Origin: a virus
DNA length: 64,000 nucleotides
Direction: 5' to 3' (one strand)
Virus record (IMG/VR): IMGVR_UViG_3300005529_000024
Location: 64,001 to 128,000 of that record
Shown: in pieces, positions 5,838 to 52,417 of the stretch
How the letters are laid out: the number at the start of each line of letters is the position of its first letter
How positions within the stretch are numbered: the stretch's first letter is position 1
Position numbers and translations under genes: made by a program
Notes under the pieces: model-generated
Told to the model about the DNA's origin: nothing
What the model saw: the letters and a program-made list of their open reading frames with translations, nothing else
Database searches by the model: none

Positions 5838-7652
5838 ATGGCTATCAACGATAAATTACTTTACACCAGCACAGATTTTTTGACTGCTAGAGCTAACATG
5901 ATCCAGATTGCTCAAGCAAACTTTCCACAATGGAATGATTTCTTTGAGAGCAATAATGGAGTTATGCTTATTGAGTTATTCGCTCACGTTCTAGATCTGT
6001 TGGCATTCTATCAGAATAGGCAGGCAAATGAAGCTTTCATTGATCGTGCTCAGATCCGGGAAAATATAGTCTCTTTAGCGGCAAACATCGGTTATCAGCT
6101 TTCTACTGCAACAGCCGCTATTGCTCTGGTTAATTTTACGCTAAACACTCCATCTCCTAATCCGATTGTTATACCTGGTAACAACCCGCTTACCAGAACC
6201 AGGATTCAAACAGCGAATGGTCTTGTATTTGAAGTTCTTGCAGATGCTACTATACCAGTTGGTAGCACGAGTATAAGTAATATACTCGTAAAACAGGTTG
6301 AGACAAACGATTTTGCTACTACGAGTGATGGATCTCCCAGACAGGCATTTACTCTACCTATCTCTCCATTTGTGAACGATGGTAGCGTAATAGTGTTGGT
6401 CAATAATGTGCCCTGGAGCCAAGTATCAAACTTTTTAAACAGCGCAAACACAAGCACTAATTTTACAGTTGAGATTGATAGTTTCAATCGCGGTATTATT
6501 GTATTCGGTGATGGTGTTAACGGATCTATACCTCCTACTGGTGCAACAATCGAAGTACAGTATCCTGTTGGCGGTGGTTCTGCTGGTAACGTCGCGCCAA
6601 ACACTATTACCCAGATTCAACAAACTATCACAGACACTCTAGGTAATCCAGTAAACATTCTTGTCACAAACCCTCTTCCTGCTGTCGGTGGTACTGATGA
6701 AGAGGATATAAATACAGCGAGGGTAAATGCTCCTGCATCTATTCGTGCGTTGTCAAGAAGCGTGACAAAGGATGACTTTAAGCTTAACTCGTTACATGTT
6801 TCTGATGTCGCAAGGGTGAATGTTCTATCCTTGGATGATATCACAGTTCAGTATAACATAGCTTTAGGAAATGGTGCTACAGTAACATTCTCCGGAACAT
6901 TACCTAATGCACCTATTCGAATTGGTACATTAACCATAGTCGCAGGGACCATATTTGCTGTAGACGCAAATGGTGATGGAATCTTCGATTCTACTACAGG
7001 TTTAATCGGTGGTACTATTAACTATAGTACCGGAGCATTTTCGATTACATATCTTGCTCCTCCGGTTACTGGTCAGCCTATCATTGCTGAATATGTAAAG
7101 CTTGTGACACCATTCATTCCAGAAGATACAGTGTTTCTTTATGTAGTGCCGATTGGAGGAGGTGAAGCTCCACAGTCTCTTCTTAATTCTGTATACAATG
7201 AAGTCACGAACGTATTTCCAAATACGATTACGCAAAGAATTATCGTTGCTACAGCGATATATAAATCTATAGATTTGGTAGGTCGTATTCATATTAGATC
7301 CGGGTTTGATTTATCGACTGTTCGCACTAATGTTGTCAATGCTCTTAACACATTCTTTAACCCGACAACATTAGACTCTTCTGGTAATTTTGTTCGTAAT
7401 TTCGGAGAGACTCTTTACCCTTCTGAGCTTATCGCTACGATTCAAGATGCTGGTGGTGTTTTAACTGTCGCATTGACTCAGATAGCTGGAGTATCCGTAA
7501 GTAGCCTAGATACACCCATTCAGTTAGATATAGATCAACTACCTATGCTTGGTAATCTTAATATAACATTCATTGATACAGCGGGTAATACTCTTGCCGT
7601 TATCGAGCCAGCTTTCAATTATGAAGCTGGTCGAGGTGGTTCTTTCGTATAA
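5838..7652 (+). CDS. Baseplate wedge protein (gp6 / Baseplate J-like)
   Basis: YTSTDF...WNDFFESNNGVMLIELFA...ANEAF, FGDGVNGSIPP, GGTDEED...RSVTKDDF motifs. Confidence 0.9.
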   Translation: MAINDKLLYTSTDFLTARANMIQIAQANFPQWNDFFESNNGVMLIELFAHVLDLLAFYQNRQANEAFIDRAQIRENIVSLAANIGYQLSTATAAIALVNFTLNTPSPNPIVIPGNNPLTRTRIQTANGLVFEVLADATIPVGSTSISNILVKQVETNDFATTSDGSPRQAFTLPISPFVNDGSVIVLVNNVPWSQVSNFLNSANTSTNFTVEIDSFNRGIIVFGDGVNGSIPPTGATIEVQYPVGGGSAGNVAPNTITQIQQTITDTLGNPVNILVTNPLPAVGGTDEEDINTARVNAPASIRALSRSVTKDDFKLNSLHVSDVARVNVLSLDDITVQYNIALGNGATVTFSGTLPNAPIRIGTLTIVAGTIFAVDANGDGIFDSTTGLIGGTINYSTGAFSITYLAPPVTGQPIIAEYVKLVTPFIPEDTVFLYVVPIGGGEAPQSLLNSVYNEVTNVFPNTITQRIIVATAIYKSIDLVGRIHIRSGFDLSTVRTNVVNALNTFFNPTTLDSSGNFVRNFGETLYPSELIATIQDAGGVLTVALTQIAGVSVSSLDTPIQLDIDQLPMLGNLNITFIDTAGNTLAVIEPAFNYEAGRGGSFV

Positions 7653-30111: not shown

Positions 30112-31437
30112 ATGCCGGATACATATTCTTATAGCGATACATTTCAGCTACAGCTTTTAGCGTGTATGGCTAAAGAGCCAACTTTTATCATGACACATAA
30201 GTCTTGTCTCTCACCATATTATTTTGAGAAAGACTATTTTATCACAGTGGCTAAGATCCTCACTGAGTATTATGAGAAGTATAAAAAGATTCCTACATTG
30301 GATACCGCTCGTGAGTATCTTAATACACAATTTCCAGCCACTCATTTCCCTGAAGCTGTATTAAACAAAACGCTGGAAACACTTGATATCGTCTATAAGA
30401 CGAACACAGATGAGTTGAAATATATCTCGGATGAGGTGTTAAAGTTTGGACAGCGCCAAGCTATTAAAATGGCGATGAGCAAATCTGTTGATCTGCTTCG
30501 TTCGAGTAATGATAGATTCAATCCAGAGAATCTAGAAAAGATTAAAGCTGAGTTTGAAAAGGCTCTACGTGTAGGCAGAACATTTTCTGAGATGGTGGAG
30601 TTCTCATCTATTGCTGATGCTCTACATCTCCACATTAAAGACTTTTTCCCTGATGCGACTAGAAGAACAGTGCCCACTCCATTCCCTTCTTTAAATGATG
30701 CAATGACCTTTAAAGGAATGAGGGCTGGTGAGCTAATCGAGATCATGGGTCATCCTGGATTTGGTAAGAGTACCTTTGCAACGAATTTCGGTGTTGCAGC
30801 AGCAATGGCAGGGTTTGAGGTTGATCTTATCTCTACAGAGTTGAACGTTAGTTCATATCTATTAAAGATTGCAGCTAGACTAACAGGCATGTCTCCTTCT
30901 GAGGTTCAGGGTAAATATCCTGCTTATCAGGAGCTTATTCAACGTTACCTGCAAGAGAACAAGATGAAGTTCCGCATCATGAAAGTTCCCATGTATCAGG
31001 CTACTGTTGATGAGATTAGATCTTATTTAGCTGCTCAGAGGTCTTTGTCAAACGCAAATACTGGCCTTCTAATTGTTGATTCTCCGGATCATATCCTGCC
31101 GCGTACCATGGCTACAGAGAAATCGAGAATGGATTTTGGACTTGTGTATGGGGATCTGAAGACTCTTGGTGAAGATTATAATTGTCCAATTGTGTTGACA
31201 ACGCAAGCAAATCGTTCTAGTATGGATAAAGAAACATTCGGTATTGAGGCTGATAGCGAGAGTTGGTATAAGCCAGCAATTTGCGACGTTGTGTTGACAA
31301 TCAATCGTTCAATCGAGGAAGATAAGCAGCAACGTGCTCGTTTATTCGTTGGTAAACTGCGTGAAGGTAAGGATAAGTTTACAATCCGATTGATGCTTAG
31401 AACTGACATTGCTACAGCGAAAGAGGCAACTGATTAG
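30112..31437 (+). CDS. Replicative helicase (DnaB / gp41-like)
   Basis: GHPGFGKS Walker A, STEL, LLIVD, TTQANR and KLREG motifs. Confidence 0.9.
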   Translation: MPDTYSYSDTFQLQLLACMAKEPTFIMTHKSCLSPYYFEKDYFITVAKILTEYYEKYKKIPTLDTAREYLNTQFPATHFPEAVLNKTLETLDIVYKTNTDELKYISDEVLKFGQRQAIKMAMSKSVDLLRSSNDRFNPENLEKIKAEFEKALRVGRTFSEMVEFSSIADALHLHIKDFFPDATRRTVPTPFPSLNDAMTFKGMRAGELIEIMGHPGFGKSTFATNFGVAAAMAGFEVDLISTELNVSSYLLKIAARLTGMSPSEVQGKYPAYQELIQRYLQENKMKFRIMKVPMYQATVDEIRSYLAAQRSLSNANTGLLIVDSPDHILPRTMATEKSRMDFGLVYGDLKTLGEDYNCPIVLTTQANRSSMDKETFGIEADSESWYKPAICDVVLTINRSIEEDKQQRARLFVGKLREGKDKFTIRLMLRTDIATAKEATD

Positions 31438-35822: not shown

Positions 35823-36751
35823 GTGCGTTGCGATGGTAGAAATCATAATCTGACTGCCATATACCATGACTCTGTTGGATATGACTGTGTTCATGTTGTG
35901 CGCTGGTGTACTAGATGTGGCGCTGTAGTTATCGATCTTGATACAGATGGTAGGGTTGATCCTGGCGCTATTGCAAAGATGTTATTCCCTTCGGATATTT
36001 ATGGAGGTGAAAAATGAGCCTTAAAGATCTTATTACTTCCCTCGAAATTCTCTCGAAGTATATGATAGATGAGCTTGAATCAAAAAAGTCTGTCTATCCT
36101 GTGGAGGGCATTATATACGTTTTTATTAACACTCCTATTGATAAAAACGATGATTATTACAAGCTTGTAAACTCAGAATGGGCTAACGTTGACACGTTCT
36201 GTTGGATGATTGAGCTATGAAGACACATTGGTTATATGGTTTCGGGCCAAACAAGGAAGTCAAACTCAACGTTGAGATTGATGAAGAAACAAAATGTTCA
36301 GACTGCATTCACGTTCAAGTTTGTGATTTTAATATGCGCTGGCGTTGTTCTAACTATACGTTTGGTACTTCCGAGTATTCCCTCAGTAGTTGCCAATCCT
36401 GCATAAATAGATTTACCAGGTTTGATAAGGATAAGGTCCCTTGCTTTGTCTGTCCATTTTTTGTTAAGCGGCCAGATGATTTTAAGCTAATAGAGATTAA
36501 AAGAGATTAAGTAATAAGAAAGGATTTGTATGGAAACAGATGGTTTTACATTCCAGAATTTAAGAACAAAAGAAACTCTTCCTTTGGATAAATTTGGTCC
36601 AATGAAGGAAGAATTCTGGAACAAGCTCGTTACAGCTATGAAAATGATGTATGCGCTTAATGTGCCTTTTAAGGTTGAGTTTCAAGGCACGAAAGATCCA
36701 GATTTTGATTCAAGTGATTTCGATCCATATTCCGAGATAGAGGAATTTTAA
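35823..36751 (+). other. Four small hypothetical genes between rtcB and the polymerase
   Basis: Coupled ORFs ending at 36017, 36220, 36510 and 36751; two are Cys-rich. Confidence 0.5.
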
Positions 36752-39561
36752 TGAGTTCTGGTGATTTTGATCTCTTATCCAAAATATCGGATAGGGATGA
36801 TTTTGCTAAGTATAAGCATGATCAGTTTAACAAGGGTCGTGACTTTAGCGATATCCTACGAACGTATACAAGTAAATGTCATTCTTGTGATCTATGCTTT
36901 GGCGCAAAGAATATCAAACTAGATTATCGTGGCGCATCAAACCCGAAAATTCTGATAGTGGGTGACGCTCCAGGTGCTACCGAGAACGAGCGTGGTGTTT
37001 CCTTCGTTGGTACAACAAGTGATCTCCTCGTTCGTTCATTGGGTGAAGCCGGGATAGCTTCTGCTGAGGTTGCTTTTACCAATTTGGTTCGTTGTATCCC
37101 TTGGGCACAGGATCATAAGAGCAACAGACAACCAACAGAATCTGAAATAAATGCTTGCATCGGATATCTCTATGAGGAGATAAAACTTTTAGATCCTAAA
37201 GTCATAGTCACGTTAGGCAATACCGCATATACAGCATTAACAAAAGATGCTTCCCCACTTATAATTGTTAGAGGGAATAAGCGAGAGATAACCGTAGACG
37301 GAAGAGCATATCCTCTGATACCGACTTATCATCCATCGTATATCTTTCGTGGTGGTGCTAAGGTAGCCGATCTTATTGCTGATCTTCGCATTGTGGCGAA
37401 TATGTTTGATCAGCGAACCAAAGACTATGCTTTCTTTAATACGGTCGAAGAACTGGAATCCTATGTAGATCTTGTAATAGAGGAACATAAGCAGAATAAG
37501 CTCTACGCTGGTTTTATTTCGTGCGACCTTGAATGGAAGGGAGCGAAAGATGATAGCTTCAATGCCTTTAAGAAAGAATGCATCATATCATCTATCCAGC
37601 TTTGCCATGCTCCTTATTTTGGCCGCGTCATTCTCTGGGATCATGAGCAGTCTAACTTTAAGGATGAGTTAAGTAAATCCCGTATTCGCGCTGCTTTACA
37701 GAGATTATTCGATACTGTTCCAGTAGGGAACCACAACATAAAAGCTGATTATAAGATGATGAAGTATCGCGTTGGTGTGGAAATGCGTCATGTTGTATTC
37801 TGCACCATGCTTTCACATCATTATCTTGTAGTAGACTCGGAACCTAACGATATCGAATATGTCGCTGGTAAGTATGCTGGTATGCCGAAGTGGGATCATC
37901 AGTCTGCTGGCTGGAAGAGCAAGATGGATCAATGCCCACTCGATATTCTCTTGGATTACGGCTGTTGCGACGTTGACGCAGTAATACGTGTTGCCCCCCT
38001 CATCAAAAAAGAACTTATCGATAAGGGCATGTACGATTCTTATATGCGCTTGAGTAATCGAGCGATTGTTCCTGTGGCCGATCTTGAAAGCAATGGTCTC
38101 CCTGTGGATTACCAGAAGCATAGAGAGTTGGTAGAAAAATATGAGAAAAAGTTTAATGAGTTCCTGGCTCAGATGCAGGAGTATGCTGAGGTTAAACAGA
38201 CAAGCGAATTATACGGCAAGTTTATGCCTAACTATTATCAGTGGCTTCATATTCTCTATTTTGATGTTCTAAAGTTACCTGGCTTCGAATGGAATAAGTC
38301 TAAGACTCTGTATTCCACAGATGTTGATACAAGAGAGAAATTACTTGAATATTGCAAGTCTAAAGGCGTTCTAGGCAAGGAGATGGTCATTGATAAGAAA
38401 GCTCTTGATCGTGTAGTTGATTTTGATCGTGCATTTGAGATTGTGAATCTAACACACGAATATAAGAAAATGCATGGGCTTCTTACAAAGTTTCTATATC
38501 CCTTATCGCTATATTTTTCTGATGACGGGAGTGTCCATCCAGGGTATAAAATCGCTGCTGCTCGAACCGCTAGAACTCTATCGGAAGATCCATCTGCACA
38601 TACGCTACCACCTCGAACGGATATTAAGGATATGTTTGTCTCCAGGTGGGCGACTTCTGGTGGTGTCATATTAAAGGGTGACGAATCACAGCTAGAGCTT
38701 AGAATTTTGGCTGTCTTGTCTAAAGATCCTGGTCTGAATGAAGCATTCAACGCTGGTAAAGACGTTCATAGATATGTGGCGTCTCGTGTCTTTAAATGTA
38801 AAGAAGCTGAAGTTACTAAGGATCAACGGCGTCTTTCTAAGGCAATCAGTTTTGGTATCGTCTTCCAGGGTGGTCCTGGTCTCATTGCGCTGACAACTGG
38901 ATTGACATTTGATGAAGCTAAAAAGCTGATTGATGACTTTTTCACGATGTTCCCTGCCGTTCAAGCCTTTATGCATGGATGTATCGAAACAGCACGAGAA
39001 ACAGGTATCGTAAAAATACCTATGGGTCGTTTCCGTCCTATTGATAATATGAACTCTCCGGATAATGCGAAACGAACTTATGCGGAACGTCAGTGTGGCA
39101 ATACTCCTATTCAGGGAGGTGCAGCTTTACTTGTTCTTGATTGTGCTCTGAACCTATATGAGGATGTTAAAAAATCGAATTTAAAGAGTAGATGGATTGA
39201 ATATACTCATGATTCTTCTGGCTATGATGTCTATCCAGGAGAACTTTTCCCGATCATGAAGAAGATTAAATTTCACATGCAGGAGAATGTTTCTCTGACT
39301 AATCCTTGGGTTACAGTCCCAATTTTAACAGATTTTGAACTTGGTGCCGATTGTGGGTTTATGCCTGGAATTGATAAGTTCCATATCGAAAATGATTACA
39401 ATGGCATCTTAGAGATCAAAGGCTTCCCAGAAAAAGTTCATAAGTTATTGGGAGAATTGGATGTTGTCTACAATTTAGATTATAAATTTAGTGAAAAAGA
39501 TAAAGAAGGTAACATAAAGGGTGAAGTAAAAATGGAAATGCGCGAAGAATGGATATCCTAA
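36751..39561 (+). CDS. Family A DNA polymerase with N-terminal family-4 uracil-DNA-glycosylase-like domain and 3'-5' exonuclease
   Basis: UDG: CHSCDLC, VGDAPG, TNLVRC, TYHPSY; Exo: CDLE, HNIKADY, YGCCD; Pol: DESQLELR, RRLSKAISFG, NTPIQG, THDS. Confidence 0.92.
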   Translation: MSSGDFDLLSKISDRDDFAKYKHDQFNKGRDFSDILRTYTSKCHSCDLCFGAKNIKLDYRGASNPKILIVGDAPGATENERGVSFVGTTSDLLVRSLGEAGIASAEVAFTNLVRCIPWAQDHKSNRQPTESEINACIGYLYEEIKLLDPKVIVTLGNTAYTALTKDASPLIIVRGNKREITVDGRAYPLIPTYHPSYIFRGGAKVADLIADLRIVANMFDQRTKDYAFFNTVEELESYVDLVIEEHKQNKLYAGFISCDLEWKGAKDDSFNAFKKECIISSIQLCHAPYFGRVILWDHEQSNFKDELSKSRIRAALQRLFDTVPVGNHNIKADYKMMKYRVGVEMRHVVFCTMLSHHYLVVDSEPNDIEYVAGKYAGMPKWDHQSAGWKSKMDQCPLDILLDYGCCDVDAVIRVAPLIKKELIDKGMYDSYMRLSNRAIVPVADLESNGLPVDYQKHRELVEKYEKKFNEFLAQMQEYAEVKQTSELYGKFMPNYYQWLHILYFDVLKLPGFEWNKSKTLYSTDVDTREKLLEYCKSKGVLGKEMVIDKKALDRVVDFDRAFEIVNLTHEYKKMHGLLTKFLYPLSLYFSDDGSVHPGYKIAAARTARTLSEDPSAHTLPPRTDIKDMFVSRWATSGGVILKGDESQLELRILAVLSKDPGLNEAFNAGKDVHRYVASRVFKCKEAEVTKDQRRLSKAISFGIVFQGGPGLIALTTGLTFDEAKKLIDDFFTMFPAVQAFMHGCIETARETGIVKIPMGRFRPIDNMNSPDNAKRTYAERQCGNTPIQGGAALLVLDCALNLYEDVKKSNLKSRWIEYTHDSSGYDVYPGELFPIMKKIKFHMQENVSLTNPWVTVPILTDFELGADCGFMPGIDKFHIENDYNGILEIKGFPEKVHKLLGELDVVYNLDYKFSEKDKEGNIKGEVKMEMREEWIS

Positions 39562-43715: not shown

Positions 43716-44397
43716 TTGTATAAATTGGGATAACGTGAACGTTCTTGTTTTCTCGGAATGTAACAATATCGATCTCTATTTTTCAAATGCTAGAAAATTT
43801 GTTGAGAATAATTATCTTGATCAATTAAATTATTTTAGGGGATTGCGCCCTGAGCATATTACAGAGAATAAATTCATAGACGAATATGTGTGGGTTGTAT
43901 ATGCAAGCGGGTTTAACGCATCTGTATTAAGTAAGAAATGGGACAAACTAAAGTCGATATATTCACAGATATACATAGATCTAGGATTTACATCGCTTTT
44001 TTCATATGATATCGAGAAATCATTAAAAGAGGCTTGCGAATTAATCAATAGGAGGGATAAGGCTGGTTCTATTGTTCGCGTTTTAACCGAGCTAGATAGT
44101 ATTGGATATGCCGCGTTTAGAAATAAATATCTCTCTAATCTTGATTCTATGATGGACTTACCATTTATTGGTCCTACTACTAAATATCATCTTGGGCGTA
44201 ATCTTGGTATAGATTGTGTGAAGCCCGATGTGCATCTAGTTAGAATGGCAGAATATTTTGGATTTTCTACACCCTTGGCAATGTGTGAATATCTAGGTAC
44301 GAATTATAATGAGCGTATTGGAGTTGTGGACTTGATCCTCTGGTATGCTGCTTCAACATTCGGTACACAGCATATGAGGAGTATGCAGTTAAAATGA
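43693..44397 (+). CDS. HhH-superfamily DNA glycosylase-like protein
   Basis: LPFIGPTTKYHLGRNLG..VKPDVHL helix-hairpin-helix with the downstream conserved Asp. Confidence 0.65.
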   Translation: MEEHLSDSCINWDNVNVLVFSECNNIDLYFSNARKFVENNYLDQLNYFRGLRPEHITENKFIDEYVWVVYASGFNASVLSKKWDKLKSIYSQIYIDLGFTSLFSYDIEKSLKEACELINRRDKAGSIVRVLTELDSIGYAAFRNKYLSNLDSMMDLPFIGPTTKYHLGRNLGIDCVKPDVHLVRMAEYFGFSTPLAMCEYLGTNYNERIGVVDLILWYAASTFGTQHMRSMQLK

Positions 44398-45428
44398 AGC
44401 TTTTAATTTATTCTGATGTGCATGTCAGTCCATATGGGGAGTTCTCAAAACCGTCTCCTAACTATTACACTCCACGGATGGGGCATCTTTTAAATACAGC
44501 ATCTTGGATTGCTGAGCGCATTATCAGTGAGAAGCCAGATTTCGTTATCAATGCTGGAGACTTCTTTAATTCAGCGCATCAACTTGATCCGCTTAGTATC
44601 TACACTGGTTGTGAGTTTATATCTCGTGTATCGGATGCTTGCTCTTCTGTAAAGGCACAGCACATAATAATATATGGGAACCATGACTCGATAGCTGATT
44701 CTGTTCACTGTCTCCATCCTTTCAAGATTCAAGCTACTGTTGTAGAGGATGCTAAACAGATAGATGACATCTTGTTTATATCAAACACACGTAATCTTGA
44801 TAATGTCCGAGAAGTTTTTAAGAAACATGGAACAGCTAGATATGCTGTAGTACACCAGGATATAAAAAATGGGTGGATGAATGCTGGCATAAAGTCATCT
44901 GGTGGATTGGATGAGTCTTATTTCGGGGATAATATAGAGCGTGTCTATTCAGGACATTATCATCATCCACAGCAGGTAGGTCGTATAACAGTAGTCGGAA
45001 GTGTAATGCATCATAACTTCAATGATGATTTCAAGATTGATCGTGGTATTGTCGTAGCTGATGATACAAAATATGAGCTTATAAAAAATCCTTGCTCTCC
45101 TTTGTATAGAAAAGTTGATATCGATGATCTATATAAACTTCAGTCATGCATTACATCTGAAAAAGCTGATGAAGAGGTTTACTATTGGATAAGGTGTTCC
45201 TCCAGCATAAAGAGAGATGTGATGGATAAACTCTCCGGTGAGGGCAACATAAGAATTACAGAGATACCAGAAGATTCTACTGTTAAGGTCATAGAGTCAG
45301 ATCATAGAACAGATCCGTATGAAGCTCTTAGGGAGAAGGTTGATCGTGACATAAACATAATCCAGGATCTAGATAAAGAAAAAGTATTATCAATAGGAAA
45401 GAGTATTATAAACTCAAGTGGGAATTAG
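44394..45428 (+). CDS. Mre11/SbcD-like nuclease (gp47-like)
   Basis: SDVH, AGDFF, GNHD, HQ, SGHYH motifs. Confidence 0.9.
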   Translation: MKLLIYSDVHVSPYGEFSKPSPNYYTPRMGHLLNTASWIAERIISEKPDFVINAGDFFNSAHQLDPLSIYTGCEFISRVSDACSSVKAQHIIIYGNHDSIADSVHCLHPFKIQATVVEDAKQIDDILFISNTRNLDNVREVFKKHGTARYAVVHQDIKNGWMNAGIKSSGGLDESYFGDNIERVYSGHYHHPQQVGRITVVGSVMHHNFNDDFKIDRGIVVADDTKYELIKNPCSPLYRKVDIDDLYKLQSCITSEKADEEVYYWIRCSSSIKRDVMDKLSGEGNIRITEIPEDSTVKVIESDHRTDPYEALREKVDRDINIIQDLDKEKVLSIGKSIINSSGN

Positions 45429-50465: not shown

Positions 50466-50510
50466 ATAGCCAATAATTTGTCTTAAATGACGATTATTGG
50501 CTATTTTTAT
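50466..50510 (+). terminator. Rho-independent terminator
   Basis: ATAGCCAATAAT...ATTATTGGCTAT hairpin plus T tract after thyX. Confidence 0.8.
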
Positions 50511-50524
50511 GCCTACATTTGATC

Positions 50525-50553
50525 TTGACAAATATACTGTTAAAAGGTATAAT
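50525..50553 (+). promoter_or_regulatory. Sigma70-type promoter for the tRNA
   Basis: TTGACA-17 bp-TATAAT; tRNA nucleotide 1 lies 7 nt after the -10 box. Confidence 0.9.
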
Positions 50554-50559
50554 ACTTAT

Positions 50560-50651
50560 AGGCCCTTAGTTTAACGGCAAAATCCTGGACTTATAATCCA
50601 GAAGCTCTAGATTGGAGCGCGATACGGGTTCGAATCCCGTAGGGCCTACCA
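50560..50651 (+). tRNA. tRNA with UAU anticodon (Ile) and long variable arm, CCA encoded
   Basis: Acceptor AGGCCCT/AGGGCCT-A-CCA; anticodon arm CTGGA-CTTATAA-TCCAG; variable stem GCTCTA-GAT-TGGAGC; T arm ACGGG-TTCGAAT-CCCGT. Confidence 0.92.
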
Positions 50652-50838
50652 ATTTTAAACACAAGGATCTAAAATGACTAAAGAGGAATACGAGAAAAGC
50701 GTTAAGGAAACTATGATCCGTGACATGCTTTGTATGTATCAAAATGAGAAACTTGGTTATACTCCAGCTTGGATCTCTATGCTTGTTGATCGTCTCTATA
50801 ATGAAGGGTGGAGAAAGACTAACGAACGACCATAGGAG

Positions 50839-51472: not shown

Positions 51473-52417
51473 ATGAACATTTTGATTAAAATGATTTTTG
51501 GTAGTTACCTTTATGGAACTGCAATTGAGGGCGTGAGCGATAAAGACTTCAAGGGCGTGTTCATGCCAGAGTTCTCTGATATCCTGCTGGCTAGGGTTAG
51601 CAAATCATATCAGACTTCTACCAAGAATGGCGACGGCAAGAATACTACCTCAGATGTCGATTCTGAGTTTTATTCCTTGCATTATTTTATCGAACTGGCT
51701 TGTCAAGGGCAGACTGTTGCCTTGGATATGCTTCACGCTCCAGAGTCCATGTGTTTAATATCGAGCCATATCTGGAGGGATATCGTTGCCCAAAGACATC
51801 TGTTTTATACTCGTAATCTGGACTCTTTTATCGGATATGCGCGTAGGCAAGCATCTAAGTATGGCATTAAGGGTAGCCGTCTTTCCGCTGCCAGTAGCGT
51901 TATCGATTTCCTTAAGAGGTGCTCTCCCTTTGAAACATTGGGCTACTATTGGGAGGAGCTTCCTCTTAGTGAGCATATCTTTAAGCATCCAGGGCAGGCT
52001 ACCAATAACAATCTGAGGGAGTATGAAGTCTGCGGTAGAAAGTTCCAGGAAACCGCTTCTATTTCCTATGTCTTGCCGATCATCGAAAAGTTTTATGCCA
52101 ATTATGGGGATAGGGCAAGACAAGCAGCGGAAAATAAAAATATTGACTGGAAAGCGATTAGCCATGCATACAGAGCAGCATTGCAGGTTAAGCAAATTCT
52201 GACTGAAAAGACGATTACTTTCCCCTTGCCACAGGCCGCTTATCTGAGGGATATCAAGACCGGAAAGCTGGATTATTCTACTGTGGTTGCCCCTGAGCTT
52301 GAAAAATTAATGGCTGAGGTAGAGGCGTTATCATTGAAAAGTGATTTGCCGGAAAGAGTTGATCGGGCTTATTGGGATTATTTTATCAAGGAAGCTATCA
52401 GGCGTTATTACTGGTAG
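51473..52417 (+). CDS. Pol-beta superfamily nucleotidyltransferase (RlaP / NrdC.11-like)
   Basis: FGSYLYGT...SDKDFKGVF, DWKAISHAYR motifs. Confidence 0.8.
   Translation: MNILIKMIFGSYLYGTAIEGVSDKDFKGVFMPEFSDILLARVSKSYQTSTKNGDGKNTTSDVDSEFYSLHYFIELACQGQTVALDMLHAPESMCLISSHIWRDIVAQRHLFYTRNLDSFIGYARRQASKYGIKGSRLSAASSVIDFLKRCSPFETLGYYWEELPLSEHIFKHPGQATNNNLREYEVCGRKFQETASISYVLPIIEKFYANYGDRARQAAENKNIDWKAISHAYRAALQVKQILTEKTITFPLPQAAYLRDIKTGKLDYSTVVAPELEKLMAEVEALSLKSDLPERVDRAYWDYFIKEAIRRYYW

Follow-up and report, generated by a model that had tools for sequence, protein, structure and literature searches.

The window, by which we mean the whole stretch of 64,000 nucleotides that we analysed, is bases 64001-128000 of an IMG/VR virus record (IMGVR_UViG_3300005529_000024) that is 174,395 bp long, has 38.9% GC and is about 82% complete. 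Nearly all genes of the record lie on the + strand, and the gene set is that of a large tailed phage, with a baseplate wedge protein, a PolA-type DNA polymerase, a DnaB-like helicase, a UvsX-like recombinase, an SbcCD-like nuclease, a class II ribonucleotide reductase and ThyX. The polymerase is a continuous 936-aa ORF at window positions 36751-39561; in a public protein collection the same ORF is represented by two 100%-identical products of 520 and 395 aa with overlapping query ranges (P0001 and P0021). ARAGORN called a single tRNA gene, at 50560-50651 (+), as Ile with anticodon tat and a length of 92 nt. The preliminary description of this DNA, made from the letters alone, had it as the only tRNA in the window, which is right and is also true of the whole record. 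A search of the phage record for class Ia synthetase genes (PF00133, the Pfam family to which IleRS belongs) found none, so the tRNA has to rely on host enzymes.

Upstream of the tRNA, directly 3' of thyX, we read from the sequence an AT-rich hairpin, CCAATAAT...ATTATTGG, followed by a T run, at 50470..50509 (+). The terminator scan did not call this hairpin because it has only 2 G-C pairs. It is possibly the thyX terminator, in which case it would insulate the promoter of the tRNA. That promoter, found with a promoter scan at 50525..50553 (+), is a sigma-70 promoter of the form TTGACA-17-TATAAT and matches at 12/12 positions. Its -10 hexamer ends 6 nt before nucleotide 1 of the tRNA, so transcription may start at or next to A1. 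The tRNA may then be leaderless, with the 5' triphosphate on its mature end and no need for RNase P.

Perfect promoters of this kind (TTGACA-N16-18-TATAAT) occur nine times in the whole 174-kb genome, at record positions 7198, 89930, 96387, 114525, 119608, 130158, 130683, 132363 and 152633, all of them on the +, coding strand, and about 0.06 would be expected by chance. From this pattern we consider the nine to be real host-polymerase promoters, one of which is the tRNA's own. Eight of the nine have the extension TTGACAA, and together they look like a clean early or middle set for the host sigma-70.

The first ORF downstream of the tRNA (50674..50835, +) encodes 53 aa and has an AAGGA ribosome-binding site. 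The terminator scan found no terminator between the tRNA and this ORF, so the tRNA probably heads a polycistronic transcript. A gene for an RlaP-like nucleotidyltransferase, of the RNA-repair pathway, lies 0.8 kb downstream of the tRNA at window positions 51473-52417. We also looked at 39 IMG/VR loci around thyX homologues (at most 59% identity), and none of them had a tRNA at the matching position. These loci come from phages of 62-66% GC that have few genes in common with this one, so they do not offer a close relative with or without the arm for comparison.

The tRNA itself was well supported. Rfam model RF00005 matched 50560-50648 with 62.8 bits (E 3e-11, model positions 1-71), where the gathering score is 29; A73 is at 50648 and an encoded CCA follows at 50649-50651. 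The acceptor stem (AGGCCCU/AGGGCCU) has 7 bp, with A1-U72 and with C4 (50563) paired to G69, and is followed by U8 and A9. The D arm has a 4-bp stem, GUUU/AAAU, which includes a U12-A23 pair, and a 7-nt loop, AACGGCA. Position 26 is C, and the T arm, ACGGG/UUCGAAU/CCCGU, is at 50624..50640 (+). These calls and our direct reading confirmed the 92-nt cloverleaf, the TAT anticodon, A1-U72 and the discriminator A of the preliminary description. We consider the tRNA to be genuine and predict that it is able to be expressed from its own 12/12 promoter.

Between the D arm and the T arm there are two anticodon-type arms. The first, CUGGA/CUUAUAA/UCCAG at 50585..50601 (+), carries the anticodon UAU at 50592-50594. 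A single nucleotide separates it from the D stem, as is canonical, its loop is canonical with C32 U33 ... A37 A38, and its helix covaries in 117 relatives that we describe below. The second is within the variable region, which has 22 nt and can be written AA-GCUC-UAGAUUG-GAGC-GCGAU. This arm, GCUC/UAGAUUG/GAGC at 50604..50618 (+), presents GAU at 50610-50612, and its third pair from the loop is C-G, equivalent to C29-G41. The 5-nt linker GCGAU at 50619..50623 (+), which joins the arm to the T stem, behaves as if it were position 43 followed by a class I variable loop of 4 nt. The U at its end is able to make an A15-U48 Levitt pair, and the second loop is 9 nt (4 + 5) from the T stem, the canonical distance for an anticodon arm.

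The variable arm had earlier been given a 6-bp stem. This is a legitimate reading of the single sequence, as it is also the MFE fold of the arm: six pairs, GCUCUA/UGGAGC, around a GAU triloop, where A2-U6 and U1-G7 are able to close the loop. In the relatives only four of the pairs covary, and the conserved unit is the 7-nt loop. We also considered an alternative cloverleaf in which the second hairpin is the sole anticodon arm and rejected it as a decoding state, as the loop has neither U33 nor a purine at 37.

We searched for relatives in several ways. Exact-pattern scans of viral contigs with the anticodon arm or the 3' end of this tRNA gave no matches, and blastn against 50,697 deposited phage records gave matches at the level of the T arm only. 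A scan which fixed just an Ile2-like 5' end, a UAU loop, a long gap and a T loop, and left the arm unconstrained, gave nine viral matches, and eight of these had AGAUU in the extra arm. With the motif included, scans found members in at least 120 viral contigs and in 71 prokaryote contigs, the latter mostly Acidobacteria MAGs along with Rhodobacteraceae, Nostoc and Acidithiobacillus. All fetched loci taken together held 215 unique long tRNA(UAU) genes, and 200 of them had an NNGAUNN hairpin.

Among these 200 members the second loop is CAGAUUA in 152, UAGAUUG as in this tRNA in 14 (the second commonest form), and UAGAUUU in 11. The first loop of this tRNA, CUUAUAA, is the commonest form in the family (149/200), and A73 is present in 199/200. 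Most of our scan patterns required AGATT or CAGATTA, so part of the loop conservation is by construction, and two scans were free of the motif. The scan for UAU, a long gap and a T arm also gave the second loops CAGAUAA, UAGAUCG, UAGAUAA, CUGAUUA, CCGAUUA, CUGAUUU and a single canonical CUGAUAA. Since the variants found without an imposed loop motif all keep GAU, the constant core is GAU and not the motif that we imposed.

For covariation we aligned 117 members whose D arms are ordinary. Pairing over the cloverleaf and the extra helix together was 94%, compared with 60% in shuffles and 33-49% when the partners were slid. The extra helix (helix 4) was 96.6% paired, with double (compensatory) changes at all 4 pairs, in members that otherwise have about 67% mean column identity. 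At the level of sequence, this establishes that the tRNA belongs to the family and that the stem of its second arm covaries. In many family members the D arms are shrunken.

With the family in hand we could compare the second arm to the arms of class II tRNAs (Leu, Ser, Tyr, Sec), which are likewise about 90 nt long and in which a hairpin separates the anticodon arm from the T arm. Class II tRNAs combine a 3-bp D stem with a large D loop, whereas here the D stem counts 4 bp and its loop 7 nt. In the same loci, the loops of class II arms measure 3-4 nt, mostly 4, and their 3' linkers are mostly 1-2 nt for Leu and Ser and about 3 nt for Tyr. The second arm is not a class II variable arm. The earlier label of a class II long variable arm therefore stands for the size of the arm and not for its kind, given the 7-nt loop, the 5-nt 3' linker and the class I D arm. 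Nor is the arm a mark of Leu, Ser, Tyr or Sec; it is instead a different kind of conserved structure, in which features of the anticodon arm of tRNAIle(GAU) recur.

We next asked how closely the arm goes with the anticodon. A scan of viral contigs that was free of the anticodon (CAGATTA plus a T arm) gave 76 matches in newly fetched loci, a set biased against the CTTATAA loop used in the earlier scans, and 58 of these were long tRNA(UAU) genes. Ten of the 76 were not called by ARAGORN, several of them visibly with UAU. The remaining viral matches were chance, inside Arg(ACG) anticodon arms or ordinary Leu arms. The same scan of bacterial contigs was mostly noise: 99/116 matches had no hairpin and no UAU loop. 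As these are chance matches, only the hairpin-forming ones (at least 4 bp) are informative, and in this small sample 10/11 lay downstream of a UAU loop. The same loci also provide an internal control. The NNGAUNN hairpin was present in 3 of 2,429 other unique tRNAs, which include 210 with CAU and 86 with GAU, versus 200 of 225 UAU tRNAs. These counts show that the second arm is tied to UAU.

The next point is what AUA means in this phage. In 194 crude ORFs ATA made up 737 of 3,007 Ile codons (25%; 17.3 per 1000 codons), which bears out the earlier impression that ATA is frequent. Its use across the whole record is very uneven between genes. Several large genes, including that for the DnaB-like helicase, have 0 ATA among 24-34 Ile codons, and the SbcD-like gene has 21 among 36; an example of the contrast is window 30112-31437 against 44394-45428. 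This unevenness may reflect expression level, timing or gene origin.

With the DNA polymerase and SbcD-like protein as queries, word-based searches returned fewer homologues than a test of the ATA codons needs. We therefore aligned the 936-residue DNA polymerase with 148 homologues from an exhaustive HMMER search. At its 14 ATA columns the homologues had I 0.309, L 0.187 and V 0.120, with Ser at 0.047; ATT/ATC columns had I 0.233, L 0.191 and V 0.181, and Leu-codon columns had I 0.149 and L 0.341. Ile ranked first in 7 of the 14 ATA columns, two of which had it in 111/145 and 108/144 sequences. A smaller set from tblastn against distant phages, with HSPs from up to 13 ORFs, gave 97 aligned ATA residues with I 0.35, V 0.23 and L 0.10. 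The ATA columns are Ile-type, so recoding to Leu or Ser is not supported, and these alignments support decoding of AUA as Ile. The preliminary description had proposed an AUA decoder, in agreement with this heavy use of ATA at Ile-type columns. It had also raised charging with Leu and recoding of AUA, and had named in advance an alignment of ATA codons as the check; the Ile-dominated columns go against recoding, as does the lack of a class II core (4-bp D stem, 7-nt D loop, 5-nt 3' linker).

The same alignments bear on a more general alternative, that this is a class II-like missense tRNA which is charged with Leu or Ser and partly recodes AUA. There are precedents for this. The nematode nev-tRNAIle(UAU), which like this one is a tRNA with a variable arm and UAU, is a class II tRNA that is leucylated in vitro and is nematode-specific (PMC3333845, PMC4300185). 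UAU is a predominant anticodon of allo-tRNAs, which have 8/4 or 9/3 acceptor/T branches and Ser identity through the arm and G73 (Mukai et al. 2017, PMC5389517); allo-tRNA(UAU) resembles our case in that UAU is on a long-armed bacterial or phage tRNA and soil Acidobacteria are among the carriers (PMC5389517). In addition, this tRNA has A73, a large variable region and a possible A15-U48 pair, all part of the bacterial Leu identity set (PMC9976931), and bacterial MAGs do contain Ser-type tRNA(UAU) genes with G73. We nonetheless find missense charging very unlikely. The nev-tRNA is class II and Leu-charged. In our case the residues at ATA columns are those of Ile positions and not of Leu or Ser positions, and the arm differs from the Leu type: its 7-nt loop and 5-nt 3' linker are unlike those of Leu, Ser and Tyr arms, and it goes with a class I D arm (4-bp stem, 7-nt loop). 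This tRNA has a 7/5 arrangement of acceptor and T branches, A73 and a GAU loop, where an allo-tRNA has 8/4 or 9/3 and G73, so we do not class it as an allo-tRNA. The Ser-type UAU tRNAs lack all features of the GAU-arm family.

The second arm looks like the anticodon arm of tRNAIle(GAU). The two are alike in having GAU central in a 7-nt loop, a Y...R loop frame, a C29-G41 equivalent and the canonical spacing from the T stem. A C-G pair at the equivalent of 29-41 occurs in 93% of second arms and in 64% of tRNAIle(GAU) anticodon arms, the highest share of any isotype in the same loci; among other tRNAs it occurs in 12%, and among the UAU arms of the family in 28%. The end of the second loop is 9 nt from the T stem in 109 of the 200 members and 10 nt in 90. 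Anticodon loop and T stem of 2,027 class I tRNAs are spaced in a similar way, by 9 nt in 34% and by 10 nt in 59%. While the 3' linker in the family is 5-6 nt, the 5' linker varies from 1 to 6 nt. Measured from the D arm, it is the UAU arm that has the canonical place; measured from the T arm, it is the GAU arm. The last base of the linker covaries with position 15, as A15-U48 in 86 members and G15-C48 in 10.

The second arm is also unlike that of tRNAIle(GAU) in some respects: it has A for U33 and U for A37, 4 pairs and not 5, and another complete anticodon arm upstream. These deviations are conserved, as position 2 of the loop is A in 194/200 members and position 6 is U in 183/200; the canonical CUGAUAA occurs once in the family. 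The modified base t6A37 is a determinant used by bacterial IleRS, and with U at position 6 the second loop cannot carry it.

The bacterial Ile identity set consists of A73, C4-G69, U12-A23, G16/U20/U21, C29-G41, G34 (or lysidine), A35, U36, A37 and A38 (PMC9976931). In the body of this tRNA A73, C4-G69 and U12-A23 are present, and G16, U20 and U21 are absent from the D loop (AACGGCA). The UAU arm has A35, U36, A37 and A38, with U34 for G34 and G29-C41 for C29-G41. The second arm has the equivalents of G34, A35, U36 and C29-G41, with U and G in place of A37 and A38. C4-G69, present here, is found in about 37% of the family. We had described the body as tRNAIle2-like and dropped this. When the body without its second arm was compared over its full length with about 2,000 class I tRNAs from the fetched loci, no isotype stood out (all scored 0.70-0.76), and we kept only the specific identity pairs.

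One could also take the second arm to be a neutral relic of an anticodon-arm duplication or fusion, or the whole gene to be decaying and unused. It is the single tRNA in the record, none of the 39 related thyX loci has a tRNA at this position, and whole-body similarity fails to identify an isotype, which would all fit. Against this, in members whose mean column identity is otherwise about 67%, GAU is constant and the stems fully covary. The spacing from the T stem is also strictly conserved, and the gene has a perfect promoter, an intact cloverleaf and an encoded CCA. We believe this to be the least probable of the explanations that we considered.

AUA is a hard codon for bacteria. It is normally read after C34 is converted to lysidine; with a plain UAU anticodon, acceptance by a typical IleRS is poor and AUG can be misread. 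For E. coli IleRS in particular, charging of a UAU anticodon is reported to be inefficient (PMC3575796). We believe, with a probability of roughly 50%, that the second arm is a surrogate recognition element for IleRS that makes up for the poorly charged UAU anticodon. Host RNA polymerase would transcribe the tRNA from its own consensus promoter, which is what predicts expression, and the tRNA would supply an Ile decoder for AUA, a codon that the phage uses heavily. The first arm, with UAU in a canonical loop and at a canonical position relative to the D arm, would do the decoding. The second arm would reproduce the anticodon-branch identity elements of the major tRNAIle(GAU) and would give the host IleRS the features that the UAU arm lacks, G34 and C29-G41. 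In this way the host IleRS would load Ile without TilS; the Ile-type columns of the ATA codons are indirect evidence for such charging. IleRS might read the second arm directly, or by way of an alternative L-shape in which the GAU arm is stacked under the D stem.

There are points against this recognition model. Plain mimicry is at odds with the A for U33 and the U for A37 in the second loop, and in this tRNA the GAU triloop could close. The D-loop determinants are absent, C4-G69 is in only about 37% of the family, and the similarity of the body is not specific for Ile. IleRS is a monomer, and an arm at the position of the variable arm is far from its anticodon-binding domain unless the tRNA refolds; an alternative stacking of the two arms would probably be needed. 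One form of this is a two-state adaptor. The GAU arm would be under the D stem for IleRS, and in the other L-shape the UAU arm would decode while the GAU arm swings out. We regard this specific version as rather doubtful. Were it true, identity and decoding would be read from two different anticodon arms of one tRNA.

It is also possible, at odds clearly below those of the recognition model, that the tRNA is a functional Ile decoder of AUA and that the second arm has a job other than recognition by IleRS. The arm might be a handle for a modification enzyme or for another host or phage protein, might protect against a host tRNA nuclease, might tune decoding so that U34 skips AUG, or might stabilise a core with a small AU-rich D arm. 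The conserved deviations of the loop (A at 2, U at 6) suggest selection beyond plain mimicry, D arms are shrunken in many family members, and the RlaP-like gene of RNA-repair type 0.8 kb downstream would fit an arms race over RNA damage. On the other hand, another job leaves unexplained the exact constancy of GAU, the C-G at the 29-41 equivalent and the occurrence only with UAU, and for nuclease protection in particular, we know of no anticodon nuclease specific for tRNAIle.

The recognition model can be set beside two other cases where AUA is read with UAU. In Mycoplasma mobile a TilS-independent class I tRNAIle(UAU) is charged by an adapted IleRS, with Arg865, according to Taniguchi et al. 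2013 (PMC3575796), and lactobacilli have a TilS-independent class I tRNAIle(UAU) as cited in PMC9976931. Their tRNAs and this one are alike in UAU, an Ile-type acceptor with A73, and reading of AUA without lysidine. They differ in that the M. mobile and lactobacilli tRNAs have an ordinary 5-nt variable loop and rely on an adapted IleRS, whereas here the tRNA itself bears the extra GAU arm. They also differ in the cells that carry them: those routes are described as TilS-independent, whereas all five bacterial genomes carrying a family member have TilS. We had considered that bacterial carriers might be without TilS and rejected this with the 5/5 result. Because the carriers keep TilS, in cells the design is an addition to the lysidine route, not a substitute for it. 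The suggestion in the preliminary description that the tRNA is TilS-independent is right for the chemistry of this tRNA, as UAU needs no lysidine, and does not extend to the bacterial genomes that carry the family.

To judge from the contigs, the GAU-arm design occurs in hundreds of phage and some bacterial sequences, and we found no published account of it. In our literature search no text described a second arm with GAU on a tRNA(UAU); this is absence from the searchable literature and not proof. If the recognition model is right, this would be a new solution to the AUA problem, a normal Ile anticodon arm beside a UAU arm, in a design that is widespread among phages and mobile elements. Synthetase and ribosome would then read physically separate elements of the tRNA, which is rare in nature. 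Such a tRNA would account for the translation of a 39%-GC genome with 17 ATA per 1000 codons by a phage with one tRNA gene of its own, and it bears on how phages escape dependence on host TilS and rare tRNAs, and on the design of orthogonal tRNAs. It also bears on tRNA annotation, where such genes are called class II or are missed.

The fetched loci contain other unusual tRNAs. In the scan for UAU, a long gap and a T arm (loci L375-L457), two further recurrent layouts were missed by ARAGORN. These have a UAU-type loop and a T arm with the D arm rewired or missing; examples are L404, L421 and L449, and L396, L397 and L432. Phage tRNA(UAU) genes thus come in several non-canonical designs. Loci with family members also have many calls of tRNA-Leu (taa, caa, tag) that are 73-76 nt long and without a long variable arm (169/3,024 tRNAs), such as those in L235 (Acidithiobacillus), L259, L236 and L044. 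Lastly, an 88-nt tRNA at L043:1109-1196 (IMGVR_UViG_3300043642_000037, 66% GC) matches RF00005 with 46.8 bits and has an anticodon stem that encloses 25 nt and not 7. ARAGORN forces it to Gly(gcc) with a poor stem. An intron-like insertion is one possible explanation, and a further unusual kind of phage tRNA is another.
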